Positions 2,553 through 49,180 of a stretch of DNA of 50,187 nt are shown piece by piece. Below the pieces are notes generated by a model. It was not told the DNA's origin, ran no database searches, and saw nothing but the letters and a program-made list of their open reading frames with translations. Position 1 is the stretch's first letter. Every line of letters begins with the position of its first letter. A program made the position numbers and the translations under genes. Source of the DNA: a virus (Duplodnaviria; Caudoviricetes); the IMG/VR virus record IMGVR_UViG_3300037424_000162, positions 1-50,187 of that record; one strand, 5' to 3'.

Positions 2553-2902
2553 ATGATTTGATCATAGCAAAGCTGAAAACTGGACCAATCAAAGCTGTCA
2601 TCAAGTTTGGAGAAACTATGCCTTCCGCGCTGACATATGCAGTAGTGATTGAAGAGCCTACGCAATTCGGGTACACTCGCTACAGAGTCAATGCCCACAT
2701 GCAACCAGGTCAACAGGATGCCCTTAGACTCTACTGCAAGAAGACTGTTTTCGACCTGTTAGCATACATCGAAATGACAGGATCGGAAGACCGTAGATTT
2801 GAATTGAAGCCGTTGGGAATTAGTAAAGTTGTGACTACGAATACTGACAAGACCATAAGCCAAGAGGCTATTTTTAGCCTACCAGAAATGAGCTACGTTT
2901 AA
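2549..2902 (+). CDS. Putative tail terminator protein
   Basis: 117-aa ORF immediately upstream of the major tail gene; synteny. Confidence 0.45.
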   Translation: MNDLIIAKLKTGPIKAVIKFGETMPSALTYAVVIEEPTQFGYTRYRVNAHMQPGQQDALRLYCKKTVFDLLAYIEMTGSEDRRFELKPLGISKVVTTNTDKTISQEAIFSLPEMSYV

Positions 2903-2915
2903 AAAGGAGAATGCC

Positions 2916-3851
2916 ATGGCGCTTCGTGAGAGTACTGCTACTGGTTTTTTGTTCGGGCCGACTATTTGCCGGTTCATCCCCAAGAATGCTGACGGAGGAT
3001 ATGCGGACCCGACCCGCGTGGTATCTTCCACTTCTGGCCCGTTTGACTTTTCGGATGCCGCCGTTCCTGCCGCTGTAACGGTCACTCTGAAGCTTGACGA
3101 TGCGACGGCAATTGCCGAGACGCTTGACCTTTCCGCAGTTGCCGACATTGCCGCTGTTACTGTAGCCGAGCTTGCTACGGCGTGGACTGCCGCGAGTGTT
3201 GCCGGATACACGGGGACCGCCGAGGCTGTAACCGGGTACTTCAAGATTGCCAAGACCACTCCCGGAACCGCGAAGTATCTCCAGATTGGTGGAGAGGTTG
3301 CGCTCTATACGGGAATGCCAGTCGCTATCATCCCCGTCAACACCCAGGTTTCTGTTGCCATCGAACAGGTCAACAAGGATGGAGAACGGATCTCCATCAT
3401 TGACTCCAATGGCCTTGAGACTGCTGTCATCACCGATACCTACCCCACCGGGGCCAATATCACGGTGACCGACTCGGTCTATGACCAGAATATTCGGGCA
3501 CTTGTTGAGGGAGGAACCCTTGAGACGGTGGCCGGATATACCAATAAGAGGTACCAATCTGCTGGTCCTGGCTCAACTCCAGGGGACTTCGTTTTCGAGG
3601 CGTTCAATTCGATGTATGCCCGTGACGATTCGCAACGGTCGAACATTAAGTCCTATCGGTGGAGACGGTACAAGGCCGTCAAGGGATACAACGGCGGGGA
3701 ATCTGGCGACCAAGCTTTCCAGACCGGTGTTTACACTCTTGCTGCCGTGCCGTATCTCGACCCCATCACCAGCGTCAAGGAAACCTTCGTCTACGAGGAG
3801 TACATTTTGACTCCCGCCGAGTTCACTGCCCTCAAGGTCAAGAGCGTCTAA
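2916..3851 (+). CDS. Major tail (tube) protein
   Basis: 311 aa, Ala/Thr/Gly-rich, strong RBS AAGGAG, followed by a terminator, upstream of chaperone and tape measure genes. Confidence 0.7.
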   Translation: MALRESTATGFLFGPTICRFIPKNADGGYADPTRVVSSTSGPFDFSDAAVPAAVTVTLKLDDATAIAETLDLSAVADIAAVTVAELATAWTAASVAGYTGTAEAVTGYFKIAKTTPGTAKYLQIGGEVALYTGMPVAIIPVNTQVSVAIEQVNKDGERISIIDSNGLETAVITDTYPTGANITVTDSVYDQNIRALVEGGTLETVAGYTNKRYQSAGPGSTPGDFVFEAFNSMYARDDSQRSNIKSYRWRRYKAVKGYNGGESGDQAFQTGVYTLAAVPYLDPITSVKETFVYEEYILTPAEFTALKVKSV

Positions 3852-3869
3852 GGGTTCTGATTCACATAC

Positions 3870-3908: not shown

Positions 3909-4586
3909 GTGAAGCGAAAACATGAACCGACAGAAGAAGAATTGAAGGCCATCGAAGCGAAACGGCTTTACGATATCACCTATCCCATCCTCATGGCTCC
4001 GTGGCATGGAACTCTTACGCCTATTCGCGTCCGCCTTCTAGGGGACTCGACTACGCTGGCGTGTGGAGATTTTGGACTAATCAAGTCATTCGGGGAGAAC
4101 TTGTCCAGTGAGTTCGGGCCGACCCTTGAGGAAATGAATGCCTACGCCGAAAGGCACCACGAGATTTGCAAGCTCACCATGGTTAACCCAACTTTTGACG
4201 AGATGTTCGCCATTGCTGGGGCACATATTGATTCCAAGGAAATCGACAAGCGCCTAAAGGACATTGAAGACGTTTGGAAAGAAATGCCCCCCGGACCTGA
4301 CAGGGTGAAACTGAAGAACGAGTTCGACCTTTTGGAACTGTCTAGCAAGTTCATTCTCCCTCCCGACTTCACAGCGTTCATCGTAAACTACGCTTTGCAA
4401 ATTGACAAAACAGACATCAATGATGTCACAGAAGATGTTTTAATGAATGCGGCCATCATGACCAACCGCTGTGGGGGGGCTCCTCATACTCATTTTCCCG
4501 GGGTCCTGACCCCTCGCATGGTTAAGGAGTTTGACAACGCCGCGCTAGTTTTGTTTGACAAGAAAACCAAGAAGAAGGCGTCCTAA
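3909..4586 (+). CDS. Putative tail assembly chaperone
   Basis: Lies between the major tail and tape measure genes. Confidence 0.55.
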   Translation: MKRKHEPTEEELKAIEAKRLYDITYPILMAPWHGTLTPIRVRLLGDSTTLACGDFGLIKSFGENLSSEFGPTLEEMNAYAERHHEICKLTMVNPTFDEMFAIAGAHIDSKEIDKRLKDIEDVWKEMPPGPDRVKLKNEFDLLELSSKFILPPDFTAFIVNYALQIDKTDINDVTEDVLMNAAIMTNRCGGAPHTHFPGVLTPRMVKEFDNAALVLFDKKTKKKAS

Positions 4587-7500
4587 TGGCCGCCGAAGAC
4601 GCTGGGTCGATTTACAGTGAAGTCAGAATCAAGATTGATCAACTCCAGAAGGATATTGCAACCGCCGTGTCCGTCATGGACAGGTTCGGCCAGAAGGTTG
4701 TCGATTCCGGGAACATCGCATCAAACCTTTTTTCAAACTCATACAGCCAGTCAGTCAAGAAAGTCGAATCCTACGTCAAGTCTCTCGACAAGGCGGTAGC
4801 GGACGGGGCGTTGACTCAACGTCAAGCCATCTCCTCTGCTATCGATGCACGCAAGGCGGAACTAGCATATATCCAAGCGACTGCCGCGAGAAAAGGCGGG
4901 TTCACTGACCAGGAAATCGGAGATCTGAAACGGGTCAAGACAGAGATTTCCAGTCTGACGGAACAGCAGAAGAAACTGGGTTCTGAGGTTGAAAAGTCTT
5001 CGGGGTCATTCAAACTTTTAGCCCTTGCCGCATCGACATTCATCATTACGCAATTCCGCGCCTTGATTACCTCAAGCGCCGCCTACTCCGAGGCCTTGGG
5101 GGATTTACGGGCCGCAACTAAGGGCAACGCCGAGGGATTGGATGAACTGGCTAAGGCCGCTGAGGGTGCCGGTAAATCCGTTGCCGCATCGTCCACTCAG
5201 GCCATTGAGGCGGAAGTTGCACTTGCCAAGGCGGGTGTTTCTACGGCGAACATCTTAGGCGGGGCGCTCACCGGAGCCTTGACCCTCGCCGCTGCCGGGA
5301 CGATGGAAGTAGCCGACGCCGCCGAGATTGCCGCCGCAACAATGACCCAGTTCAACCTTGACGGTCAGGACGTGGTACATATCGCCGACCTTCTAGCCGC
5401 TGGAGCTGGTAAGGCTCAGGGCGAAGTATCAGACCTGTCCCAAGCCTTGAAGCAAGCTGGTCTGGTGGCCTCTCAGACGGGTCTTTCGGTTGACGACACC
5501 GTGGGGACCCTTGCCGCATTTGCCTCGGCTGGACTATTGGGAAGCGATGCTGGTACCTCGTTCCGAACCATGCTCCTACGGCTTACCCCTCAAAGTAAGG
5601 AAGCCGCTGGGGAAATGAAACGCCTCGGGCTTAATGCGTTTGACGCCAAGGGCGAGTTTATTGGTATTGAGAAGTTCGCAGGTCAACTCAAGGACCAGCT
5701 TTCAGACCTGACTACCGAACAGCGTAACTCCGCGCTTGCTACGATTTTCGGGACAGACTCTATCCGAGCCGCTAACGTGCTATACACCCAGGGGGCTAAG
5801 GGAATCTCGGAGTGGATTGGTAAAGTTAATGATACCGGGTTTGCGGCAGAGGTAGCCAGGATCAAGCTTGACAACCTCGCCGGGGACCTTAAAAAGCTTG
5901 ACGCCCAGGTAGCCACGTCATCGGCCAAGATTGGCGGGTCGCTTGACCCCTCTCTGCGGGGCCTTGCTCAGGGGGCTACAGCGTTCCTTGACTTCCTCGA
6001 CGATATTCCGGCGCCTATTGCCGCGTTCATCACCGCCGCCGGGACTCTTGCCTCCGGAATCGTTGCAGTCACCCTTGGGGTAGGATTCTTGACCCCGGCA
6101 CTGGCAATGATGGGGATTACGGTGTCGGCCGCCTTCGGGCCAATTGCCCTTGCCGTAGGAGCCGTCACTGCGTTGGCTGGTGGTATTATCGCCATGACTA
6201 ATGCCGTCAATGCCGCCGATGTCGAGAAGGCTGGAAGGATTTTCGGGGATATCGCGGTCGAGGCTGGATTGTCAGGCGAGGAACTGGCCAAGTTCAACCA
6301 AAGAGCCAGTGATGCGGAGAAGTTCCTCCGGGCTATGGAACTCGACGGGATGGCTAGTGCCAAGTCGTTTGAGACCCTAGCCAAAGACCTGGGATTGACC
6401 AATGACCAACTTGCCCAGATTGCCATTCGGTCCAGGACAAGCGGTCAGGAGATCAAGAACATTGCTTCAGGGTACCTTGACGGTGCCGCCGCCGCTAAAA
6501 GATTTGCCGAAGCTAACGTCACCCTTGCCTTGACCCTCCGGGATTCCTGGAGATCGGCCACCCCTGCCGAAATCAAGAAGGTCGAAGATGCCCTGACTGG
6601 AATACCAGTGGCCGTTGAAGATGCCTCGGCGCTGACTGCAAGCGAACTTGAGGAACTGACTGCCCGTTACCGTGCCACAGCGGACAGAGTCGCAGACATT
6701 GTCGGTTACATGCGGGCCACACGCGAGAAGGAATCCATTGCTGAGGCTGATGCGATTGCCTCCAGTAACGAGACCATCATTGGGTCCTATGCCTACGCTC
6801 AAAACAGGGTTCGGGGCATCATTGAAGCCAGGATCAAGGCTACGGCCAAGGAAGAAGAGAAAGTCCAGCTTGAGACTAATGTCAAGCTTGCAGAGTCAAT
6901 CCTAAACACCTTTTCAGGTCTTACCAATGCTCTGGCCGACATTTTCGCATCTCTTAGCGATAAGCAAATCAACGCACTTGAAAGAGTCTATGACCACGAA
7001 CGAGAACTCATCGAGAACAATGGTCTGACGAAAAAACAAGCCCTTGAAAAAGATGTTGCCGATGCGATAACTGCGGGAGACGCTACCGCTCAAGCTGACG
7101 CACAACGGGCTCTTGATCTATATAACCTAGAGGCTGATTTCACAAGAAAAAAGGCCCAACTTGAATACGAAGCGGCTATGACCCAATGGAAGTTCAACCT
7201 TGTGATTGCCGCCGCCAACGCCGCTAACAGCATCCTTAAGGCCGTGGCAAGTGCCGCCTTCCCCCTCAACATCCCCGCCATTGCCTTCGCATCCCTGGTT
7301 GGTGGTGCTCAGACTGCCGCCGTGTTTGCCGCCCAACCTCAGCCCCCGGCGTTTGCTACAGGTGGTATTGTGTTGCCCTCTGGCAACGCGGGAAGACAAG
7401 TCACGGTTGCCGACAAAGACGGAGGAGAAATCATGTTCGGGACCGGCGCAATGGGCGCCCCTATGATGCAAGCCTTCGTGAGTGCCGTTGCCTCAGAAGT

Positions 7501-36531: not shown

Positions 36532-36714
36532 GTGATGGAGTGGATTAGTGTGGAAGACAGACTTCCCGAGGTTTGTCAGCTGGTTCGGGTTATGGGGCCC
36601 GGTGTAGATGGAGCGGATTTCTGTTTTTCTCACGACCCAACAAAGTCGAGATGGGATTGCCATTGGAACGATGAGGTGACTCACTGGATGCCAATAGAGG
36701 ACACCATACTTTGA
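36532..36714 (+). CDS. DUF551 family protein
   Basis: EWISVEDRLPE...VTHWMP. Confidence 0.85.
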   Translation: MMEWISVEDRLPEVCQLVRVMGPGVDGADFCFSHDPTKSRWDCHWNDEVTHWMPIEDTIL

Positions 36715-36982: not shown

Positions 36983-37360
36983 GTGCCAAGGAAAGGCGGT
37001 ACACCAAAAAACTTAATCCCAAACCCCGAACGAAGCCCGGAAAAGCTCAAGGAAATGGGGGCCTCTGGCGGTAAGAAATCCGGAGAGGTCCGCCGTGAAA
37101 AAGCAAAGGTGTCTTCGATCATGGCCAATCTGCTAATGCAGGAACATGACATCGAAATCGATGGCGTATCCATGGGGAAAATGAGTGGCGAGAAACTACT
37201 CGGGGAAGTGGCCGTTAGGATCATCGCCAAGGGTGATAATACATCGGTTGCCATGATGCGCCTTATCCTCGACGCCACCGAGGGGAGCAAGTCCCAATTG
37301 ACCGGAGACGGTGGAGCACCGCTGAAAATGACAGTAGAAATTGTTGATCCGAAAAAGTGA
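36983..37360 (+). CDS. terS: Terminase small subunit
   Basis: NLIP...GG..SG.VRR N-terminus and LTG.GGAPL C-terminus; overlaps terL. Confidence 0.75.
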   Translation: MPRKGGTPKNLIPNPERSPEKLKEMGASGGKKSGEVRREKAKVSSIMANLLMQEHDIEIDGVSMGKMSGEKLLGEVAVRIIAKGDNTSVAMMRLILDATEGSKSQLTGDGGAPLKMTVEIVDPKK

Positions 37361-38631
37361 AACTTAATAGAACGTATCAGCAACTTCTGGGCTCTGATGG
37401 GACACTCCGAAAGGACGTTAGATACTTTGAGGTCTACGGTGGGCGACGATCAGGCAAGAGTCACGACGTTGACGCGATTGTCGGGCTTACTGCCACGGTT
37501 GAGCCGGGGCATTTTATCGTCGGGGTTCGCAAGGTGGCCACTACCCTAAAAGATTCGATCTTTGCCGAGTTCAAAGGGTTCTTTCGGGACAACGAAATCC
37601 CGGTTCAGACCAACGAAACCGATAAGGAAATCCGTCTTGCCAACGGGAGCCGTGTTCGGTGTTTCGGCCTAGACGACCCTGAAAAGCTCAAGTCACTCAA
37701 GGGCGCAACAATCATCGTCCTGGAGGAGGCCAACGAGCTAACCGAGGACGATTTTGACAGCCTAGACGCCGGGCTGTCTCCGTCAAACTACCCTGGCCGA
37801 ATCATCCTGCTACATAACCCGGTGCCAAAGGTTCCGGGGCTGGACTACTGGTATGAGAAGCGATTCCAGAATATTCCGCATGAACTATCCAAGGCAATAA
37901 TCAACGAACCGTCTAACGCGCTAGTCCTTAGGACGTGGTACAAAGACAATGCCTTTTGCCCCCCCGAGTCTATCCGCGTTCTCGAAAACTACCGACTTAC
38001 CAATCCGCAGAAGTACAAACTATGGGCGCTGGGCGAGTCGGTGCGCGTCGAGGGCGTGGTGTTCAACAATTGGGATATCGTGCCCGAGGTTCCGAAAAGG
38101 ATACTTCACGATTCCATGGGCGTCGGTCTCGATTTTGGTTTCAGCAATGATCCATCTGCCGCCGTTCGGGTCTGGATTCGGGATGACGAAATGTGGGTCA
38201 AACTCCTGGTATACTCGACCGGGCTCCATAACGAGATGCTTCTCAAGGCCCTCAAGGAATCCGGGGTAGACGAGCACGAAAGCGTGATAGCTGACTCGGC
38301 CCGACCCGACATTATCGAAGACTTACACCGCCGGGGGCTTCGCGGCGTAAAGGGTGTCTCAAAGCACAAGGGGTACAAAGAGGACATTGCTAACCGTGCC
38401 ATGTCATTCAAGATTCACCTTATCGAAGGTGACACCGACCTGATACGTGAGTTCTCGACCTACGCATGGGCCAGGGATAAAACAGGGAAGCCGTTGCCGA
38501 AACTCCAGGACGGAGACGATCACGGTATCGACGCCATGATTATGCTTCTAGCCGATTCTAGCAAGTTCAACCTCCCCCTCATCATCACCGAGCAGGACCG
38601 GGCGAGTCTGGCGAGTAGGTGGAGGAAGTGA
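37357..38631 (+). CDS. terL: Terminase large subunit (PBSX-type)
   Basis: YGGRRSGKS, GLDDPEKLKS, LEEANE, GLDFGFSNDP, ADSARP and DHGIDA motifs. Confidence 0.95.
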   Translation: MKLNRTYQQLLGSDGTLRKDVRYFEVYGGRRSGKSHDVDAIVGLTATVEPGHFIVGVRKVATTLKDSIFAEFKGFFRDNEIPVQTNETDKEIRLANGSRVRCFGLDDPEKLKSLKGATIIVLEEANELTEDDFDSLDAGLSPSNYPGRIILLHNPVPKVPGLDYWYEKRFQNIPHELSKAIINEPSNALVLRTWYKDNAFCPPESIRVLENYRLTNPQKYKLWALGESVRVEGVVFNNWDIVPEVPKRILHDSMGVGLDFGFSNDPSAAVRVWIRDDEMWVKLLVYSTGLHNEMLLKALKESGVDEHESVIADSARPDIIEDLHRRGLRGVKGVSKHKGYKEDIANRAMSFKIHLIEGDTDLIREFSTYAWARDKTGKPLPKLQDGDDHGIDAMIMLLADSSKFNLPLIITEQDRASLASRWRK

Positions 38632-38641
38632 AAGAAAGCTA

Positions 38642-38670
38642 TTGACAATGTTTGATTGTAGGTTTAGATT
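38642..38670 (+). promoter_or_regulatory. Promoter of the tRNA-like RNA
   Basis: TTGACA-17bp-TAGATT. Confidence 0.75.
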
Positions 38671-38675
38671 GATTG

Positions 38676-38815
38676 TGGAACGTGACGGAATTGGTAGACG
38701 TGCAGCGGGTTGCGACTTAGCCGGGCCGTGTGACGACACATAAAACACGTTGACCGCCCCGGAGAGCCCAAATCGGGCCTTTGAAGCAGTATGGGTTCGA
38801 GTCCTGTCGTTCCAT
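38676..38815 (+). ncRNA. tRNA-like RNA (~140 nt) with acceptor stem, Leu-type D arm and T arm but an expanded multi-hairpin centre
   Basis: TGGAACG/CGTTCCA acceptor; ACGGAATTGGTAGACGT D arm; ATGGG-TTCGAGT-CCTGT T arm; about 88 nt in between; own promoter and terminator. Confidence 0.75.
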
Positions 38816-38821
38816 CTTAAC

Positions 38822-38848
38822 CCCTAGTTTTACTAGGGTTTTTCTTTT
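38822..38848 (+). terminator. Intrinsic terminator
   Basis: CCCTAGT-TTT-ACTAGGG followed by TTTTTCTTTT. Confidence 0.85.
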
Positions 38849-38864
38849 GTTGAATCTTTGCATA

Positions 38865-38899
38865 AACCTATTGACGTATTCTCTCGGTAGGTTTATACT
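38865..38899 (+). promoter_or_regulatory. Promoter with AACCTA-N17-TAGGTT inverted repeat
   Basis: TTGACG-17bp-TATACT. Confidence 0.75.
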
Positions 38900-38920
38900 G
38901 TACTTAGTGAGGGAAACGAA

Positions 38921-39232
38921 ATGACAAAGTTGATTGAGGCCGAAGCCGGAAGCGTTGACTGGGATGTTTACTCTGACCTCGAAACCATCGATGAGGAAGG
39001 GAACGAAATCTACAGCCCTGAGTACGTCAAGATCGATAACCTTTTCGTCAAGCCTGAGTTCAGAGGAAATGGCGTTGCTCGTTCCCTGATGGCTCAGGCT
39101 ATTGCCAAGATCGAAGCAGACTTCCCCGGTATGACAATCAAGATCGTTCCCGAGCCCAAGAGCACGGGCACCGACCTCTCCAGACTTGCCGCTTTCTATG
39201 AAAGCCTTGGCCTTGAAGTGGTTGCTTTCTAA
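38921..39232 (+). CDS. GNAT-family N-acetyltransferase
   Basis: LFVKPEFRGNGVARSLM acetyl-CoA-binding motif; FYESLG motif. Confidence 0.9.
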   Translation: MTKLIEAEAGSVDWDVYSDLETIDEEGNEIYSPEYVKIDNLFVKPEFRGNGVARSLMAQAIAKIEADFPGMTIKIVPEPKSTGTDLSRLAAFYESLGLEVVAF

Positions 39233-39238
39233 GTGATT

Positions 39239-39273
39239 AACCTATTGACACCATCCGTTACTAGGTTTAGTAT
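39239..39273 (+). promoter_or_regulatory. Promoter with AACCTA-N17-TAGGTT inverted repeat
   Basis: TTGACA-17bp-TAGTAT. Confidence 0.7.
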
Positions 39274-39294
39274 GTGGGAGTGAGGAGACGAGAG

Positions 39295-42200
39295 ATGAAA
39301 ACAATAGAAGAATCGTTAAGCGAACTTAGTTTTGATGTCAAACTAACGAATTACCCGCATTCGTATGGTCTTCTGACATTTGATACCACTGTTGGATCAG
39401 TATCAACGCTACTTCCAGAAGGGTTCCCAGCGGCTAGTCCCGCATATTTTATGGTATCAGAAAAACAAGAAGCCTCGTTTCCAAGGATCAAATGTGATGG
39501 CGGCAGTAGGCTTGCTATTCCCATTCTCAGAAGGGGGTGGCCAATTAATGATATGGTTACCATGGCATTTAGACCGACAAAATGGAACCCAAACAGAGAT
39601 AACGCCCATACCTGGGTCAGGATGATCAAGAATGCCTTGACCGATGCCACCGATATGGCGGTAGACATCGAATGACCCCCGCCGAAAAGCTCGAACACCT
39701 GGAGCGAAAGTGAAAGTGAAAGCCGTCGTGACCGAAGTTTGGCACATTGAAACAGACTGCACTCTTGATGAGTTTCAGACTGTCGATGTAGAGGGTGTTC
39801 GCGATGGCGGTGCTTTGGTTAGCAGGAAGATGAAGCTGTCAAAGTACCGAACACCGGAAGAGGTTCTGGCCGAGAATCGCAAGGTGGTGACGCCCAAGCG
39901 CGCCGAGTCGTCTAGGGCCAACGCGAACAAGCCCCCCAAGGCCGGCAAGATGGCTAGGGGGAGGCCGAGGAAGGAAGCAAAGGAGACACAAAAATGATTT
40001 CTAAGATCATCAAAGGTTTTGGAAAGCAAATGCCTATCGAGGTCGCGCACAAGTTGGCCGAACGCCATGTGATTATGGCTGGAGACTTCGAAGTCGGTGT
40101 ACTGCCGATACCAACAGGCTTCTATGGCTTAGAAATGCCTCCTTTCAATCCTATCACAGTTGTCTTGCCTTATCTGAACCTTGATAGGGCCGAGGAAGGT
40201 GAAGGATGAGCAGAACTAAACGGCGGTACAGCACCCGTGCCATGATGGCAACATCGCACCCTGATCGTGATGGACAAAGCCATCACGGCGTAGGTTTTGA
40301 GTGGATGTCCGGACGACTTGGGAATATGTTTGATCAACCAGGGCCGTACACGAAGAAGCTGACACATAGAAAAGAGCGTCGTACCTCTATTGTAAAGGAT
40401 GAGTGAAGCCGAGTTGAAGCACGTCAAGAATGTGATCAGCGGCTGGAAGAAGTCTTGGTCGATTAGTCTTTCGTCTCGTGCCGAATGTGCATTGCGCGAA
40501 AGGATTGTTAGGATGATTCAAGAGCATGGCGCAACCGAAATCGCCCCGATTGTGAAGGAGTGTGTGGAGTGAGTATACCGCTTGACTATGAAGAAAAACT
40601 TTCCGCAAGACTTAGGGCAAAACACCGATCATGGTACTACAGGATCAGGCGATCAATTGACTTTATCAACTTGGCCGAGAGCGATTGGCAACGGTGGAGA
40701 CACCATGTCGGGGAGCGCGTTGGGAATAGAGACATTTTCTGGACAAATGCTTTGTCGGTGGCAACGCTGGAAGAGCTCGAAGACCTAGACGAACTCAGAA
40801 ATGAAAAGCGGCTAGGGATCTAGCTACCAACCCCACAAACCTAAACTTACCGGGAGGTAGTGATGAAATTGCTTAGACTGATTTACCACTGGATTGCATG
40901 GAAGACCTTTGGAAGCGGTGATCCTGACAAACACCAGTGCGATTTCAAGCATTCCGGCGAACCAGGTGGATGGTGGGTAAATCTCAATGACTTTGAGGGT
41001 TACTACTGCGAGCGAACTAAGGATCATTTTGGAGAGCATAAATGACCCGCACCGAACTAGCGCAAGAGTTCATCCTAGAAATGGAAATCGTCCTCGACAA
41101 CATGACGCCACTTGATAAGGAACATGCAAAGGACCGTTTGCAGTGTAAGCGGCTTTTGACCGAGGCCAAGACTGACGACGACCGGGCCACTATCCTAGCT
41201 CTCTACCTTGCCACGGTTGCCGATAAGTCCGAGGTGGTCAACTCCGAACTCACTGCCAATGGTCGGGCCGGTGATAAGGTGTCGATTGCCAAGTGGTCGC
41301 GTATCGCTGGACTGGTGTTGCAGTTGAACCGCTCGGGCGGGAGTTATGGTAGGATGATTGGGTGGAGTGGGTTGAAGATGGAGGTAATGGGATGAACAAA
41401 GTAGACCTTGGTGAACTCGGAGTCTGGGAAGAAACCGAAGCTCCGAACGAGTACAAGAATCTCAAACTTGAGTCCGGCGATGTGACTCTGAGCAATGATC
41501 GGTTTGTAACCATCGTTGCCGAAACAATGACAATGAACTGGTGGAGGCGTCTTGTTTTTCTCATCACTGGTAGACTGTCACTTGTGGTAAAAGACCCTTT
41601 GAAGGATGGTATCAAATGAAAGTCCGCCTACTTGAATCGGCTCACGACACGTGGGCACCTGCGGGGACCGTGGGGGAGCTTAAATACATGCCTGACGTTC
41701 TCGGAAAGCCTATCTATCGTTTCTATCCTGACCATCAAAACAAGCCCCTACTGTTCAAGTCGCATGACGGCGGCCTCTGGATCGGTCGCGTGAAGTGGGA
41801 AGAGGTTTCTCATGGTACAATGGAAACAGAACATGGGCCTGTTCCGGTGTTTGTAGAGGATAGCGCCGATAACATTCAAGTGGCCGTTGCCAATGCTTTG
41901 GTTAAGCCACGGAAGCGGGGGAAGTGATGGAATGGCTTACTGTTTTGATGGTTGGACTTCTTGTCGGTGTGATCATGGGTCAATTGTCAGTTTGGCATTG
42001 GCTTAGGAAGCGTGGATATTCCAGAGAGGATCTTGAATAATGTACCTAGTCGGCCACCTAACCAAAGCTCATGGCGCGGAGGACCCACAGTGGCACATCA
42101 TCTCCCTCCGGTGGCGTTTCAAGACGGCGTTGAAAGAATGTATGCAAAGTGACGCCTACTTTTACATTCCCATCAAACTTGGTAGACTACCGTCATCGGC

Positions 42201-42462
42201 CCAGGCCGTGTTCCCGAGGAGGTAGCTAATGACAGGGCTGGAGCTGGCTAATGCGGTGTCAAGGAATGTAATGAACGGTATCACGCCTATCAATAGTAGG
42301 TACATTAGATCAAGAGCGGTTGATGATATTTGCTCCATGTACCCTGACTTTGACCGATCTATTGCCGAGAAGGCGTGGGATATGGCAGGAGAAATCAAAG
42401 GCGCGGCACACTGGGAAGCCTTGCAAGCCCTTCTGGAAATGGCCAAGGAAGGGTTGCTCTAA
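39295..42462 (+). other. Block of ~12 small hypothetical CDSs between terL and portal (e.g. 39295-39675, 39710-39997, 39994-40209, 40206-40406, 40399-40572, 40860-41045, 41042-41395, 41616-41927, 42040-42225, 42229-42462)
   Basis: Coupled short ORFs. Confidence 0.65.
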
Positions 42463-43856
42463 TGCTCTGGAACATCCCCGCCGACCAGCAAGAACGCTCG
42501 AACCCGATGAAAACGCAGTCCAGACGCCCAAACAACCTAGATGAAACAGAAAGCTGGATCGTAGACGACGCCTTCGCCGAGGGCCTATACAACGGAACTA
42601 TGCCGGGGTTCAAGCTGGCTTCTGCCCTGGTATTCCCTATCGTTTCGGTCCCCGTGGCGTTCATGGGTCTCCCTATCCCGGTGTCAAAGTCCAAGAATAA
42701 AGCGTCCCAGGCCATGCTAGACCTACTCATCAAGGAAACCGCCCAGACCTTGACCCAAGTGTTCACCAATCGCCGCAAGGTCGGCACAGGGTGGGTGTGG
42801 CCGAATTATGACGCCAAATTAGGGAAGATAGTTGACGAGCTTATCCCCAACGCCTCGGTGGTCGATATCATCAAGGATCATGATAACGGATCGGTCAAGA
42901 TGATTATCACCGATGAACAAATGACCATCCAAACCGGCGAGAACAGGCAAAGCGTCATTCGCAAGAAACGGTACTTTACGCCGCAATCGGTCAAGGTGGA
43001 ATACTCGGGGGACGTTCCTCCGGGGCTAGCCAATCGCACTATGAAGAACCCCTCCGGCGTTATGCCGATATGGTTTCCCATGGGTTCCGATGGTCGAAAG
43101 TGCCGAGGTAATCCGGCTGTCATGCGCGTGGTGTCTCACCTCAAGAACTACCATGACAATTTGCTAAAGTGGCACGAATCCCAGGTTAAGTTCAATACCA
43201 AGATGTTCATTACCGGGATCAAGAATGTCTCGGAGTTCCTGAAAAACAACGGCCTAACATCGCTGTCAGAAGTTGACGTATCAAAGGGCGACTTGCTTCT
43301 TTTGCAGGAAGGCGAAGCGGTTGACATGACCTTTGCCTCTGGCATGGGGGAGTCTTTCAAGATCCTTGCCGAGGTCAATTTTATCAACATCGTTGAAGGC
43401 GTAATGGTCCCTGAAATCGCCTTCGGTATCTCGACCACTGGGAACCACGCTTCAGCAGAACAGGATATGACTGTCCTAGCGAACACCGTGAACAACGAAC
43501 AGGCCGAGGTTGACCGCCCGGTGCGGGAATACTTCGCCGCCCGTCTACGCCTCATGGCCGGGGCTGGCATGCTGTCGGTTGACCAGGATTTCGACATCTC
43601 GTGGAACGACATTGAGGTGGTGAGTCAGGAAGTCAAGGCCAAGATTCTCCAGGCCCAGGCCGATGCTATCGCTAAACTCGACGTCAACGCTTCGCTTGCC
43701 CTTGAGGACAAACACAAGTGGTTCCTTGCAATCTGGCCCAGGACTACCGAACCTGATTTTGAGAAGTGGAAAGCTGGTCTTTCCGAGGCGGCGAAGTTCA
43801 AGCAGTACCGGGATGCGAGTTTGACCGATGCCGCTGATATGGTGGGGGCGGTGTGA
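42462..43856 (+). CDS. Portal protein
   Basis: About 464 aa; size and position between terminase and head morphogenesis genes. Confidence 0.75.
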   Translation: MLWNIPADQQERSNPMKTQSRRPNNLDETESWIVDDAFAEGLYNGTMPGFKLASALVFPIVSVPVAFMGLPIPVSKSKNKASQAMLDLLIKETAQTLTQVFTNRRKVGTGWVWPNYDAKLGKIVDELIPNASVVDIIKDHDNGSVKMIITDEQMTIQTGENRQSVIRKKRYFTPQSVKVEYSGDVPPGLANRTMKNPSGVMPIWFPMGSDGRKCRGNPAVMRVVSHLKNYHDNLLKWHESQVKFNTKMFITGIKNVSEFLKNNGLTSLSEVDVSKGDLLLLQEGEAVDMTFASGMGESFKILAEVNFINIVEGVMVPEIAFGISTTGNHASAEQDMTVLANTVNNEQAEVDRPVREYFAARLRLMAGAGMLSVDQDFDISWNDIEVVSQEVKAKILQAQADAIAKLDVNASLALEDKHKWFLAIWPRTTEPDFEKWKAGLSEAAKFKQYRDASLTDAADMVGAV

Positions 43857-45007: not shown

Positions 45008-45037
45008 TTGACAGGGTAGCACTTAGCGTAGTAGGAT
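45008..45037 (+). promoter_or_regulatory. tRNA operon promoter
   Basis: TTGACA-18bp-TAGGAT. Confidence 0.65.
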
Positions 45038-45046
45038 TTACGTCAT

Positions 45047-45130
45047 GGAAGGCACCTCTGTAATGGACGGAAACTAGTCTTGAAAACTAGGGGGTGGGAA
45101 ACTATAGGGGTTCGATTCCTCTGTCTTCCG
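45047..45130 (+). tRNA. tRNA-Ser(TGA)
   Basis: CTAGT-CTTGAAA-ACTAG anticodon arm, long variable arm, TTCGATT T loop, G73. Confidence 0.85.
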
Positions 45131-45133
45131 AAT

Positions 45134-45207
45134 GACTCCATAGCCCAACTGGCAGAGGCAAGCGTCTCAAAATCGCAGTGTTCTTGGTTCGAATCCAAGT
45201 GGAGTTA
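45134..45207 (+). tRNA. tRNA-Leu(CAA), short variable loop, weak anticodon stem
   Basis: GACTCCA/TGGAGTT acceptor; loop CTCAAAA; CTTGG-TTCGAAT-CCAAG T arm. Confidence 0.75.
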
Positions 45208-45209
45208 AC

Positions 45210-45282
45210 GGCCCTCTAGCCCAATGGCAGAGGCACCAGATTTAGGATCTGGTCAGTCTGGGTTCGACTCCCAGGGGGGCTA
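45210..45282 (+). tRNA. tRNA-Leu(TAG), short variable loop
   Basis: CCAGA-TTTAGGA-TCTGG anticodon arm; CTGGG-TTCGACT-CCCAG T arm; A73. Confidence 0.85.
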
Positions 45283-45289
45283 AGTTCTT

Positions 45290-45361
45290 AGCCGGATTGG
45301 TGTATCGGTAGCACATGGGCCTTGGGCGCTCAGGGGTCCGGTTCGAATCCGGGTTCGGCTA
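45290..45361 (+). tRNA. tRNA-Pro(TGG)
   Basis: TGGGC-CTTGGGC-GCTCA anticodon arm; TCCGG-TTCGAAT-CCGGG T arm. Confidence 0.75.
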
Positions 45362-45406
45362 TGTGGGTAGTCGCAAAAGTGAGATTCCGGTGAGCGATCC
45401 GGGCAT

Positions 45407-45492
45407 GGCACGGGATACCAGTAGGGGGCTGGACGAGACTGTAAATCTCGGGCGCTTTCGCGTTCCGTAGGGTTCGACTCCCTCACGTGTCA
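45407..45492 (+). tRNA. tRNA-Tyr(GTA)
   Basis: CGAGA-CTGTAAA-TCTCG anticodon arm; long variable arm. Confidence 0.8.
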
Positions 45493-45495
45493 AAT

Positions 45496-45580
45496 GGATT
45501 ATGCAACCCAAGGGGATTTGGGCGCTGTTTGCTAAACAGATGGAGGCGAAAGCCTTGGCGTTCGAATCGCCGCTTTTCCG
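45496..45580 (+). tRNA. tRNA-Ser(GCT), mismatched acceptor stem
   Basis: CTGT-TTGCTAA-ACAG anticodon arm; variable arm AGGC-GAAA-GCCT; G73. Confidence 0.7.
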
Positions 45581-45583
45581 TAT

Positions 45584-45652
45584 GGGCCTTGCTGACGGCA
45601 AGCACGAATCCTTGCAAGATTCTGTGAATCGGTTCGATCCCGATAGGGTCCA
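45584..45652 (+). tRNA. tRNA-Ala(TGC), shortened D region
   Basis: GAATC-CTTGCAA-GATTC anticodon arm; G3.U70 pair; A73. Confidence 0.8.
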
Positions 45653-45653
45653 A

Positions 45654-45751
45654 GTGTTCGCGTGGTGGAATTGGCAGACACCCCCGTGATTAAGTTGCAT
45701 GGGGCCCGCGTTAATTCAGGCGGGTTATCGGTTCGAGTCCGATCAGGATAC
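45654..45751 (+). tRNA. Aberrant tRNA-Leu-like gene (possibly TAA) with extended anticodon arm
   Basis: GTGGTGGAATTGGCAGACAC D arm; CCCCGTG-ATTAAGTTG-CATGGGG; CCCGC/GCGGG variable arm; ATCGG-TTCGAGT-CCGAT T arm; poorly paired acceptor. Confidence 0.55.
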
Positions 45752-45754
45752 GTT

Positions 45755-45779
45755 AAACCAGCTTCACGGCTGGTTTTTT
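45755..45779 (+). terminator. tRNA operon terminator
   Basis: AAACCAGC-TTCACG-GCTGGTTT followed by a T tract. Confidence 0.85.
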
Positions 45780-47663: not shown

Positions 47664-47830
47664 ATTATACAACCGCTTGCGTTAATGTCAAGGAAACCTA
47701 TCAACGTTTACAAAGTGTCTACTTTTGAATACAGTGTATCATTTAGTATACATGTATCATTTTGTTGACGTGTACTAAAAACTAGACAGTAGGTGTAGAC
47801 AAAAGTAGACACCACTATTAGACTGGAGAC
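47664..47830. promoter_or_regulatory. Divergent control region upstream of the head operon
   Basis: AT-rich; three TAGACA copies; inverted repeat GTGTCTACTTTT/AAAAGTAGACAC; two TGTATCATTT copies. Confidence 0.55.
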
Positions 47831-49180
47831 ATGGCCAAACTATACTGGACTGGGGCTTTCGGATATCTCGACAAAGAAACCGGTGACGGTATTCTTTCCT
47901 CTAGGATCAAGAAGGACATTGACGCTTCGGCGGGCGGCCCACTTGAGGTTGACCTCATGTCTCCGGGTGGCGACTTTTGGCAGATTGCCCCGATCATGGG
48001 GATGATCCGAGGCCATAGGGGTCAGACCATTTTGAACATGGTTGGGCTTGTCGGTTCCGCCGCCTCAGCCGTTGCCATGGCATTCACCGAGCGTGTTTCT
48101 TACGACCTTTCCGTGTTCTTCATTCACAACGCCCAGGGAATGGCCGGTGGTGACCATAACGCCATGGGAGAAAGGGCCAAGGAACTAAAAGAGCTTTCCG
48201 AAATGATGGCCGCTGAATACGTTCGTGCGACGGGTCTTCCTATGGCCAAGATCAAGGAACTTATGGACGGTGAAAGCGGTAATGGCACTTGGATCACCGG
48301 TAAGAAAATCCATGAACTGGGATTCTCGACTCGGCACGTTAGCGAATCTGACAGCCGCCCTATCAATGAAACCATGATGCTGTTTTCGGCTAAGGCCAAC
48401 TTCCGAGACATGGTTTCCATGCTGGCCAAGTCTACGCCGGAAACTCAGTCTTTCGATATGGCCACGGCTAAGGCCATAGAATCCCTAATCGACTCAGGCG
48501 CAATCGACAAGCTGTCGGCCATGCCGACCGTCAAGGATTCTGACGTTACCCTAAGCATTGAAAAGAACCCAGTCGCCATTAATGGCAAGGTCTATCGCTC
48601 CTCGCTCCGAAGCATTTCGGCCCGAGCCGCGAAAGATGAACCTGAATTGGCCAAGTGGGCTACGGCGATGATCGCCAAGATCGACGCCAAAGGAGATTTG
48701 AAAGTGAACAAAGAAGCTGTATTGGCTTGGCTCAAGGATAACCCCGGGTGCGCGTCGGAAGTCGCCTCTACCATGGGGCTCAACCTTGTGACCGAAGCCG
48801 TGACCAAGGCCGTGGAGATGAAAGCGAAGTTGGAAGCCGCGAACGTGGCCGACCCGCTGGCGCTTATCGCCACCATGAAGGCCGATCTTGAGAAGGTCGA
48901 GGCCGCCAGGATCGAAGCCGCCATGAGCGTGTTCGGCCCCAAGGTTTCGCCCTCTGGTGCCAAGAACAAGTCCCGCGAGTTCGCCGAGCTTGCCCTTCGC
49001 GGTGTCAAATCCGACGAGATCGAAGCCAAGATTGAAGAGGTCAAGAAGAACGAAGTCTTCCTTGCTCTTCGTGGCGAACTGTTTGACGTGAACTCCGACT
49101 GGAATATGATCGGTGTTTCGGAGATGGGTGGCGACCGTGCGCCCAAGGGTGACAAGTTTGAACGTCACCTGAAACTGTAA
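47831..49180 (+). CDS. ClpP-like prohead protease fused to a scaffold-like C-terminal region
   Basis: SPGGD, GSAAS (Ser) and FFIHNA (His) motifs; Ala/Lys/Glu-rich helical tail. Confidence 0.88.
   Translation: MAKLYWTGAFGYLDKETGDGILSSRIKKDIDASAGGPLEVDLMSPGGDFWQIAPIMGMIRGHRGQTILNMVGLVGSAASAVAMAFTERVSYDLSVFFIHNAQGMAGGDHNAMGERAKELKELSEMMAAEYVRATGLPMAKIKELMDGESGNGTWITGKKIHELGFSTRHVSESDSRPINETMMLFSAKANFRDMVSMLAKSTPETQSFDMATAKAIESLIDSGAIDKLSAMPTVKDSDVTLSIEKNPVAINGKVYRSSLRSISARAAKDEPELAKWATAMIAKIDAKGDLKVNKEAVLAWLKDNPGCASEVASTMGLNLVTEAVTKAVEMKAKLEAANVADPLALIATMKADLEKVEAARIEAAMSVFGPKVSPSGAKNKSREFAELALRGVKSDEIEAKIEEVKKNEVFLALRGELFDVNSDWNMIGVSEMGGDRAPKGDKFERHLKL

Follow-up and report, generated by a model that had tools for sequence, protein, structure and literature searches.

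Morons and the PeSL mobile regulatory cassettes of T4-type phages (PMC3594210, PMC2839356, PMC4122927) are the described systems closest to the locus analysed here. As presented in these sources, they share with it non-essential, often orphan genes placed between conserved genes under a strong sigma-70-like promoter of their own. Further likenesses are a stem-loop terminator right before the next promoter, which one unit of our locus has, and a repeated promoter motif that recurs before other cargo in a relative. Our phage differs from the PeSL phages of these accounts in being a 50-kb, non-T4 phage with only three copies in one island, one of them with an RNA as cargo, and its repeated unit is a promoter in a 6-bp inverted repeat plus a leader, not a promoter/stem-loop per copy. 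For the cargoes, the nearest precedents are AcrVA5, a mini-GNAT anti-CRISPR protein acetylating Cas12a (PDB 6iuf; bioRxiv 10.1101/2021.11.16.468554), the TacT/AtaT/GmvT/KacT toxins, prokaryotic E2/UBC-like proteins, and the tRNA genes of Lak megaphages with their introns, termed "enigmatic" in the report on them (PMC6784885).

The window (the whole stretch of 50,187 nucleotides that was analysed) is a whole virus genome of 50 kb with terminal repeats, of sediment origin, and the phage is apparently lytic. We consider it probable that the segment studied holds three independent moron-type units, each gained or assembled on its own copy of a single portable regulatory cassette, in an island between terL and the portal gene.

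The island between terL and the portal gene

The features discussed are:
37357-38631, + strand: terL, large terminase gene (Pfam Terminase_3, 1.9e-33; Terminase_3C, 3.1e-11), left border of the island
38636-38670, + strand: promoter P1 with AAGCTA / TAGGTT; -35 TTGACA at 38642-38647, -10 TAGATT at 38665-38670
38676-38815, + strand: tRNA-like RNA (Rfam tRNA, 25.4 bits, E 0.0023; gathering score 29)
38822-38848, + strand: intrinsic terminator of the RNA unit, a 7-bp stem followed by a T run
38865-38899, + strand: promoter P2 with AACCTA / TAGGTT; -35 TTGACG at 38871-38876, -10 TATACT at 38894-38899
38921-39232, + strand: mini-GNAT acetyltransferase, 103 aa (Pfam Acetyltransf_7, 3e-8)
39239-39273, + strand: promoter P3 with AACCTA / TAGGTT; -35 TTGACA at 39245-39250, -10 TAGTAT at 39268-39273
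39295-39675, + strand: ORF126, an orphan of 126 aa without a family; ATG at 39295, 7 nt after GAGGAG
39710-39997, + strand: ORF95, the first of about ten closely packed small ORFs
42375-43856, + strand: portal gene (PHROG phrog_146 portal, 1.6e-8), right border of the island

The interval between the end of terL (38631) and the start of the portal gene (42375) is 3.7 kb, and the segment would be the left end of an accessory island inserted there. In the closest TerL relative (L002, TerL 86% identical), terL (2618-3859) is followed after 64 nt by a portal/head-morphogenesis gene (3923-6184; phrog_2662, 4e-113). GNAT and ORF126 were present in none of 21 TerL-related loci (0/21), the longest blastn match of the tRNA-like RNA to these loci was at most 14 nt, and positions 37357-40400 gave zero matches in the GenBank phage collection. 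Own promoters, a site between conserved genes and absence from close relatives are the features of morons; the identical type of regulatory cassette before a different cargo in another phage (L069) is that of a mobile cassette. The units are independent in that a terminator follows the RNA, and GNAT and ORF126 each have their own Shine-Dalgarno sequence. No terminator-like site was found on the + strand from 38848 to 40265, and transcripts from P2 and P3 would run into ORF95 and the about ten small ORFs. The C-terminus of ORF95 contains an RGRPRK stretch common to small ORFs of L002 and L069.

Promoters P1 to P3 and their inverted repeat

Indeed, as the preliminary description had it, three consecutive promoters have an inverted repeat around the -35 box: AAGCTA-N17-TAGGTT at 38636-38664, and AACCTA-N17-TAGGTT at 38865-38893 and 39239-39267. 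The cargo that it had named also proved to be as described, i.e. a tRNA-like RNA (below the Rfam gathering score), a GNAT (by Pfam) and an ORF without a known family. A search for the repeat returned three + strand sites, plus the third site read in reverse, against 0.01 expected (100 shuffles); the repeat of the first site is imperfect (5/6 complementary). All three promoters are of the sigma-70 type, TTGAC(A/G)-17-TAnnnT, with a promoter-like score of 10/12. The genome contains 15 promoter-like sites of at least 10/12, and the flanks are present at P1, P2 and P3 only. The common block, AA(G/C)CTATTGAC-N12-TAGGTTTA, is longer than previously given. CTATTGAC has three genomic copies, all in the three promoters, and the same is true of TAGGTTTA (3/3). 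The two blocks comprise 19 invariant columns, and the 12-nt spacers have nothing in common.

Since the flanking blocks are identical, the spacers have diverged and the outer hexamers AACCTA and TAGGTT are mutual reverse complements, common regulation of the three units is plausible. The earlier proposal of one promoter design under common regulation stands for the design, which is common to all three units and, judged from sequence, is maintained by selection; the regulator was not found. Pfam scans of 30 further ORFs gave no DNA-binding family (they returned helicase, primase-helicase, AAA_24, DUF669, DUF7448 and DUF551). We infer that the repeat most likely binds a single dimeric regulator, which would cover -41 to -13 and switch the three units together, and we regard their co-regulation as likely. 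With 23 bp between their centres, the half-sites are spaced unusually for a simple dimer, and the conserved blocks could serve to adjust promoter strength instead. If the repeat is an operator, the locus would represent a compact natural portable promoter-operator cassette that places unrelated accessory genes plus an RNA in one circuit.

Several other readings of the repeat were rejected. The arms of P3 are complementary at 9/11 positions, and an extended 11-bp palindrome (L065, L067, L070) is not general, the inner arm positions being complementary at 0 to 4 of 5 depending on the site. Reading TAGGTTTA as a Bacteroidetes-type -7 box requires the wrong spacing, and the other promoters of the genome are sigma-70-like. 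LexA, FNR or CRP boxes do not fit by their consensus sequences.

In IMG/VR, the motif had six exact matches, compared with two and one for two controls in which one half-site was reversed. Because the controls themselves gave 1-2 matches, part of the six outside matches may be due to chance. The whole records of five TerL relatives all lacked the motif, with up to two mismatches allowed. Four motif-bearing phages (G001-G004) have zero proteins in common with the window except for a weak TerL match, which makes one shared phage-encoded regulator unlikely; no protein is common to all motif-bearing phages, and G005 alone has proteins in common with the window. In L069, a related phage sharing proteins with the window at 11.1-18.5 kb and at 34-36.5 kb, an unrelated ORF of 59 aa is driven by the same promoter, whose leader is near-identical to the P2 and P3 leader. 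To judge by this recurrence, promoter and leader form a portable cassette. It would consist of a near-consensus sigma-70 promoter, whose -35 box and spacer are bracketed by the 6-bp AACCTA / TAGGTT, and of a leader and ribosome-binding site common to the two protein units. The host polymerase should transcribe all three units, presumably early.

The preliminary description had named promoter duplication as an outcome that would refute its proposal, and the portable promoter and leader in L069 come close to it. In its plain form, this alternative holds that a strong promoter was copied by recombination, in the manner of the PeSL cassettes of T4-type phages, giving constitutive early morons, and that the palindrome has no regulatory meaning. 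P2, P3 and L069 have homologous leaders, pointing to common descent, which agrees with it, as do the terminator-plus-promoter composite at 38822-38899, the matches of the reversed controls and the failure to find a regulator in the Pfam scans or among the proteins of motif-bearing phages. It does not account well for the fact that the spacers have fully diverged, yet the six bases preceding the -35 box and six bases within the spacer are unchanged at 3/3 window sites and in L069. Moreover, each hexamer is exactly the reverse complement of the other, and the motif outnumbers the reversed controls. We therefore regard plain duplication as possible but rather unlikely, and prefer moron-type units on copies of a regulatory cassette.

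The tRNA-like RNA

The 5' end of the RNA coincides with the predicted transcription start, and CCA is not encoded. It has a 7-bp acceptor stem (7/7 pairs, U1-A72), a Leu-type D arm and a T arm, all with high posterior probability, and 82 nt in the Rfam alignment where the 15-nt anticodon region would be (about 82-89 nt for anticodon and variable region together). No anticodon arm with a 7-nt loop could be recognised in it, and the Rfam score is below gathering. At the default threshold, ARAGORN did not call the RNA whether or not introns were allowed; a call required introns and a lowered threshold and was a poor Ala(UGC) solution. Over its whole length, the RNA is no more stably folded than shuffled sequence (z -0.01), and imposing the tRNA fold costs 7.9 kcal/mol (-40.5, against -48.4 when unconstrained). 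No sequence relatives were detected: the GenBank phage collection gave only matches of up to 34 nt to tRNA D/T arms, a search of genome contigs found no RNA-like pattern, and the stretch before the T arm, used as a pattern, matched L054 alone, with an unrelated interior. Since a structured 80-90-nt domain replaces the anticodon arm, a decoding function is unlikely. The RNA could be a decaying tRNA gene.

Other RNA classes were considered and rejected. A tmRNA was found neither by ARAGORN -m nor by Rfam (E up to 10); a 13-codon frame that might resemble a tmRNA tag frame is present, and its ending is not tag-like. For a YrlA-type Y RNA the order of the arms is wrong, and no Rfam match was obtained.

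With Lak-type intron tRNA genes (PMC6784885), the RNA has in common that a tRNA-type gene of a phage carries a large insert in the anticodon region, and many such long genes exist in IMG/VR. Thus, it might be an intron-bearing phage tRNA gene, spliced to a working tRNA and located here by chance. A pattern search of IMG/VR, with a spacing of 75-105 nt required between a Leu-type D loop and the T loop, yielded 28 loci, in line with this reading: 22 of these 28 long loci were not called by ARAGORN at default settings, 21 of the 22 were called when introns were allowed, and 5/12 long loci tested, taken at full length, scored at or above the Rfam tRNA gathering cut-off. ARAGORN at its default threshold, introns permitted, found 0 genes in the window RNA, in contrast to these 21/22. 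By reading of the sequence, no excision gives a loop with U33 and purine 37 at either candidate anticodon stem, so that, unlike the Lak-type genes, the RNA is not restorable to a canonical tRNA. It also differs in standing alone, 6.3 kb from the tRNA operon of the phage, with its own promoter and terminator and without a sequence relative. We consider the intron reading very unlikely. A hammerhead-like core suspected in one group of the long tRNA genes (L038) had no Rfam match.

Mini-GNAT, ORF126 and possible host-directed roles

The GNAT exceeds the cut-offs of Pfam Acetyltransf_7, Acetyltransf_10 and Acetyltransf_1, and it has the acetyl-CoA motif (R48-G-N-G-V-A53) and an invariant C-terminal tyrosine (Y93). 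With 14 homologues of 102-117 aa, it belongs to a family of about 15 mini-GNATs. The AF2 model (mean pLDDT 91.6) had its best PDB match in AcrVA5 (6iuf_B; Z 10.6, rmsd 2.2 A, 84/95 residues; Foldseek TM 0.61/0.65), a match just 1.1 Z above the next GNAT. Both are GNATs of a mobile element, of about 95-100 aa, without the usual N-terminal helices. They differ in that sequence similarity was not detected, AcrVA5 being absent from the 46 PDB sequences matched by the family profile at E up to 1, and in that no anti-CRISPR-associated regulator gene was seen by the window GNAT. PADLOC returned nothing for four proteins, and the search of genome contigs found no GNAT relative. The GNAT is catalytically equipped and probably acetylates a host protein.

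Twelve loci of homologues were analysed, leaving out the closest ones (P0002-P0008, 66-77% identical, on contigs <1.1 kb). A promoter-like site of at least 10/12 lies within 41-66 nt upstream in 6/12 loci, two of the 12 having <70 nt of upstream sequence. In diverse phages, the relatives come first after a strong promoter and have varied neighbours; the uncharacterised AcrVA5-like family is a lead in itself.

The preliminary description had proposed that GNAT and RNA form a translation-targeting module under one regulator, in which a TacT/AtaT-like GNAT acts on tRNA or translation and the tRNA mimic serves as its substrate, decoy or RNA antitoxin. The two adjoin and have the common promoter design, and the tRNA-acetylating toxins AtaT2, GmvT and TacT1 match the GNAT structurally (Z 8.7-8.9; 7.9-8.9 across the TacT/AtaT/GmvT/KacT toxins), with the same fold, acetyl-CoA motif and C-terminal Tyr. 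Such toxins contact the acceptor stem, which is retained in the RNA. Co-occurrence, however, was negative in every direction testable: the 12 GNAT loci contained no tRNA-like gene (0/12; ARAGORN, blastn), motif or ORF126, the five other motif-bearing phage records contained neither GNAT nor RNA (0/5), and the terminase relatives lacked all three cargoes. The toxins have 150-175 aa, compared with 103 aa for the GNAT, whose alignments to 7f37, 9ilr, 7ak8, 6ajm and 5fvj start at chain residues 41-44, so that it covers only residues ~42-155 of TacT/AtaT-type toxins and the N-terminal third is missing. No toxin family was matched by sequence (the NCBIfam matches were to generic GNAT models, all far below threshold), and no RHH/DUF1778-type antitoxin gene adjoins it, the neighbours being RNA, terminator and promoter upstream and ORF126 downstream. 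A terminator and a separate promoter lie between RNA and GNAT, and the relatives of the GNAT have their varied neighbours. We consider the module highly improbable; adjacency and a common promoter are here no evidence for a toxin-antitoxin-like RNA-enzyme pair. In the sequence collections searched, the three cargoes are unrelated in distribution.

ORF126 had no homologues among 5.8 billion clusters or 1.84 billion representatives and 0 matches to PDB sequences at E up to 10. Weak, convergent hints suggest that it may have an E2/UBC-like fold. Pfam Prok-E2_E gave E 0.09 (13 bits versus a cut-off of 25; 8.9 bits in the genome search). The Atlas model (pLDDT 0.60) reached TM 0.70 to an E2/UBC cluster (feature score 0.90), and its alignments to prokaryotic E2/UBC-like proteins (Prok-E2_E PF14462, E2-CBASS PF26395 in Pfam) had TM 0.70 and 0.68 over 109-116 residues; a single-sequence AF2 model was unusable (pLDDT 35). 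Like prokaryotic E2/UBC-like proteins, ORF126 is of similar size and has a single Cys (residue 67) after the fourth strand. In contrast to them, it is a phage-encoded orphan below the Pfam cut-off, with no E1, ubiquitin-like or JAB partners nearby.

Counter-defence cargo is possible in the moron-type units that we prefer. A specific version would be a co-regulated counter-defence island with a single palindromic operator and three modes of action. As a decoy or sponge, the tRNA mimic (acceptor plus elbow) would draw off tRNA-targeting nucleases of the host or tRNA-sensing immunity, an immune protein of the host would be disabled by the AcrVA5-like mini-acetyltransferase, and the stand-alone E2-like protein would disturb Bil or type II CBASS, which are ubiquitin-like conjugation defences. 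We regard this combination as decidedly unlikely. Besides the mini-GNAT family, the locus offers two leads, an orphan phage protein that may adopt an E2 fold and a tRNA-shaped RNA unlikely to decode, and all three cargoes are cheaply testable as candidate counter-defence factors.

An alternative GTG start of ORF126 at 39274 abuts the -10 box of P3 and would therefore fall outside the P3 transcript.

Three units behind one promoter design

The three promoters with a flanking inverted repeat (P1, P2 and P3), located in the accessory island between terL and the portal gene, were confirmed exactly at the positions first reported. Against an expectation of 0.01, the inverted-repeat pattern had three + strand matches, and the third also matched when read in reverse. 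The common block extends further than the preliminary description stated, to AA(G/C)CTATTGAC-N12-TAGGTTTA, and all three genomic copies of CTATTGAC, like all three of TAGGTTTA, fall at these sites. Each is a promoter-like TTGAC(A/G)-17-TAnnnT site with 10/12 consensus matches; among the 65 promoter-like sites listed genome-wide, 15 score at least 10/12 and only P1-P3 have the flanks, which are missing from the promoters before terS (36925) and the tRNA operon (45008). The P1 repeat is imperfect (AAGCTA, 5/6 complementary). The design that the three promoters have in common is real, and it is an unusual one.

Features of the island and its surroundings
36983-37360: terS-like gene, directly 5' of terL
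37357-38631, + strand: terL (Pfam Terminase_3, 1.9e-33)
38636-38670, + strand: P1
38676-38815: tRNA-like RNA
38822-38848, + strand: terminator-like 7-bp stem and T run, 3' of the RNA
38865-38899, + strand: P2
38921-39232: gene of a 103-aa mini-GNAT acetyltransferase (GNAT)
39239-39273, + strand: P3
39295-39675: ORF126, encoding an orphan 126-aa protein
42375-43856, + strand: portal gene, 2.7 kb downstream of the three-unit segment
44029-45006: head-morphogenesis gene, after the portal gene
47831-49180: head protease gene

Since the -10 box of P1 ends at 38670, transcription is expected to start at about 38676-38678, which corresponds to the first acceptor-stem base of the RNA. P2 begins 17 nt past the RNA terminator, and a GAGG-containing leader separates it from the GNAT gene; P3 begins 7 nt past the GNAT stop codon, with a GAGGAG downstream of it and the ORF126 ATG another 7 nt on. 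The start codon listed for ORF126, GTG at 39274, abuts the P3 -10 box and therefore lies outside the expected transcript. As no terminator-like site was found on the + strand between 38848 and 40265, transcripts from P2 and P3 are expected to enter ORF95 and about ten further small packed ORFs that extend to the portal gene. Two relatives, L002 (the closest by TerL; 1641-1808) and L069 (reverse strand, ORF49), have an intact copy of a conserved small ORF whose C-terminus includes an AT-hook-like RGRPRK; in the window (39672-39997), a stop terminates the first 13 codons of this ORF, and ORF95 consists of the conserved C-terminus behind an N-terminal part of different sequence.

The promoter in other phages

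An exact search of IMG/VR with the 19-base motif returned six loci, and control motifs with one half-site reversed returned two and one. All six outside loci have a TAnnnT box directly 3' of the motif and a small ORF downstream, each ORF being different, and the five records checked contain one motif-type site each. The phage L069 is genuinely related to that of the window, the two having proteins in common at window positions 11.1-18.5 kb and 34-36.5 kb. At the L069 site, the motif and the ATAA upstream of it recur, with a leader that hardly differs from the leaders of P2 and P3; the promoter drives an unrelated 59-aa ORF, and the next small ORF is homologous to the C-terminus of ORF95. The other four motif-bearing records have no protein in common with the window except for a weak TerL match, and both GNAT and the RNA are absent from them. 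Judged from these sequence comparisons, the P1-P3-type promoter is a portable cassette. In the AT-rich phages L065, L067 and L070, the motif lies inside a longer palindrome with arms 9-10/11 complementary and a 7-nt A/T spacer.

To decide between an operator and mere promoter duplication, we aligned nine sites. The 19 invariant columns all fall within the two blocks or at the last -10 base, the 12-nt spacers have nothing in common, and in two of the three window sites each outer hexamer is exactly the reverse complement of the other. The conservation of the blocks, the reverse-complement hexamers and the excess over the controls together point to selection on bases other than those of the -35 and -10 hexamers, and the blocks could be read as the binding site of a putative dimeric factor covering -41 to -13. 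Real points against an operator are the lack of a regulator among the ORFs scanned and of any protein common to all motif-bearing phages, the unusual half-site spacing of 23 bp, and the complementarity of the inner arms, which varies from 0 to 4 of 5. We consider a true operator at P1-P3 slightly less probable than even, and common regulation of the three units in a wider sense somewhat probable. Of the co-regulated cassette proposed earlier, the single design is retained, with common regulation as a fair inference from it, but the functional pairing of RNA and GNAT is not.

Genome setting of the island

The window is a complete virus record of 50,187 bp with direct terminal repeats. The replication module (helicase, primase-helicase, AAA_24 and DUF669 by Pfam) lies elsewhere in the genome, and no integrase or repressor was found among 30 further window ORFs scanned. 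In L002, whose TerL and terS are 86% and 81% identical to those of the window, 64 nt separate terL from the next gene, a portal/head-morphogenesis gene encoding 753 aa (phrog_2662, 4e-113). Neither GNAT nor ORF126 is encoded in any of the 21 loci with TerL relatives, where the longest match to the RNA was at most 14 nt, and a scan of five TerL relatives over their entire records (at least 97% complete for three) found no copy of the motif with up to two mismatches. By this comparison, the three-unit segment is an insertion between the terminase genes and the portal gene. The best description of the region is an accessory island, missing from the nearest relative, that carries three moron-type cassettes on one portable promoter.

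Just 5' of terS, the window encodes a 60-aa DUF551 protein (36532-36714), and a similar small ORF is present in the corresponding region of L069. A perfect 12/12 sigma-70 consensus promoter, TTGACA-16-TATAAT, is located on the - strand at 47664-47691, pointing leftward between head genes.

The RNA, the acetyltransferase and ORF126

The Rfam tRNA model aligned with the acceptor, D and T arms of the RNA, skipping 82 nt (25.4 bits). The RNA has a D arm of the bacterial tRNA-Leu type, a U-A pair at 1-72 and U at position 73, and its gene does not encode CCA. When the acceptor, D and T arms are imposed on the fold, the interior forms a CAGCG/CGUUG stem around ~39 nt and a long hairpin of ~38 nt at the place of a class II variable arm. 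Compared with shuffled sequences, the RNA is no more stable (z -0.01). Phages commonly have long tRNA-type genes: 28 IMG/VR loci matched a pattern in which 75-105 nt separate a Leu-type D loop from a T loop. Six of these were ordinary neighboring tRNAs, and 21 of the remaining 22 were called intron-bearing tRNAs by ARAGORN, several inside tRNA arrays. The nearest published parallel is the 'enigmatic' tRNA introns of Lak phages (PMC6784885). For the window RNA, 6.3 kb away from the tRNA operon of this phage, ARAGORN made no call with the settings used on the 22 comparison genes, no sequence relative was found in the loci and collections searched, and no excision choice leaves a loop with U33 and a purine at 37 on manual reading of sequence and fold. 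A non-decoding tRNA mimic is more likely than a spliced, intron-bearing tRNA, and a decaying tRNA gene is possible.

The tRNA operon of the window (45047-45751; promoter at 45008, terminator at 45755-45776) contains several tRNA genes of unusual form. Leu(CAA) and Leu(UAG) are of class I shape and lack the long variable arm, two genes are matched by the tRNA-Sec model alone and below threshold, and the last, Leu-like gene (45654-45751) has the D arm and T loop in common with the RNA at 38676 and no Rfam family at E up to 1. Among phage long tRNA-type genes, those of L038, L043, L058 and L064 share a conserved interior hairpin and the same insert borders beside different apparent anticodons, pointing to a possible family of mobile inserts in the tRNA genes of phages. 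In the tRNA arrays of phages L061 (1710-1834, 4626-4820) and L062 (380-496, 792-920), several genes attain the Rfam tRNA gathering score despite lengths of 117-195 nt, and a 62-nt tRNA-model match lies inside one of the long genes.

GNAT fits the C-terminal half of Pfam GNAT models with residues 31-97 and has 14 homologues of 102-117 aa (51-77% identical), among which R48-G-x-G-x-A53 and Y93 are conserved. The best solved structural match of its AF2 model (mean pLDDT 91.6) is AcrVA5, over the full AcrVA5 length (Z 10.6, rmsd 2.2 A, 84/95 residues); the next GNAT has Z 9.5. The tRNA-acetylating toxins reach Z 7.9-8.9 and align only from about toxin residue 42. No toxin family matched by sequence, and PADLOC returned nothing for GNAT. 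In 12 of the 14 GNAT-relative loci examined, the gene is complete or almost so; L035 covers just 30 residues, and L036 is probably no relative. None of the 14 has a tRNA or tmRNA gene (ARAGORN), an RNA match, ORF126 or the inverted-repeat pattern. The proposal that a TacT/AtaT-like GNAT acts together with the RNA as its substrate, decoy or antitoxin failed the co-occurrence check in every testable direction (GNAT loci, motif records and TerL relatives). A promoter-like site of at least 10/12 lies 41-66 nt 5' of the gene in six of the 12 loci, as a rule behind an AT-rich stretch; for two of the 12, the sequence 5' of the gene was shorter than 70 nt. In the locus L023 the gene is the first of a rightward operon beside divergent recombination genes. 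We read GNAT as an early, host-directed acetyltransferase, for which an AcrVA5-like mechanism would be an analogy, not membership. By structural analogy and weak hints, the cargo of the island may be counter-defence genes.

ORF126 had no relatives in either large protein search, and its only Pfam match was Prok-E2_E (E 0.09 over 24 residues; 8.9 bits in another search). Its sequence is present in the ESM Atlas, where a feature search gave 0.90 with 186 features shared with Prok-E2_E-bearing clusters, and the Atlas model (pLDDT 0.60) aligned with an E2/UBC cluster at TM 0.70 and with a type II CBASS E2 cluster at TM 0.68; among shuffled proteins, 4-10 of 100 reach such scores by chance, and the two Atlas searches count as one source. 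The single-sequence fold, unusable as a model, has a strand-strand-strand-strand-helix order that fits E2. On these predictions, the odds that ORF126 has an E2-type fold are roughly even. Across ORF126, the GC content dips to 0.43, compared with 0.52 for the genome.
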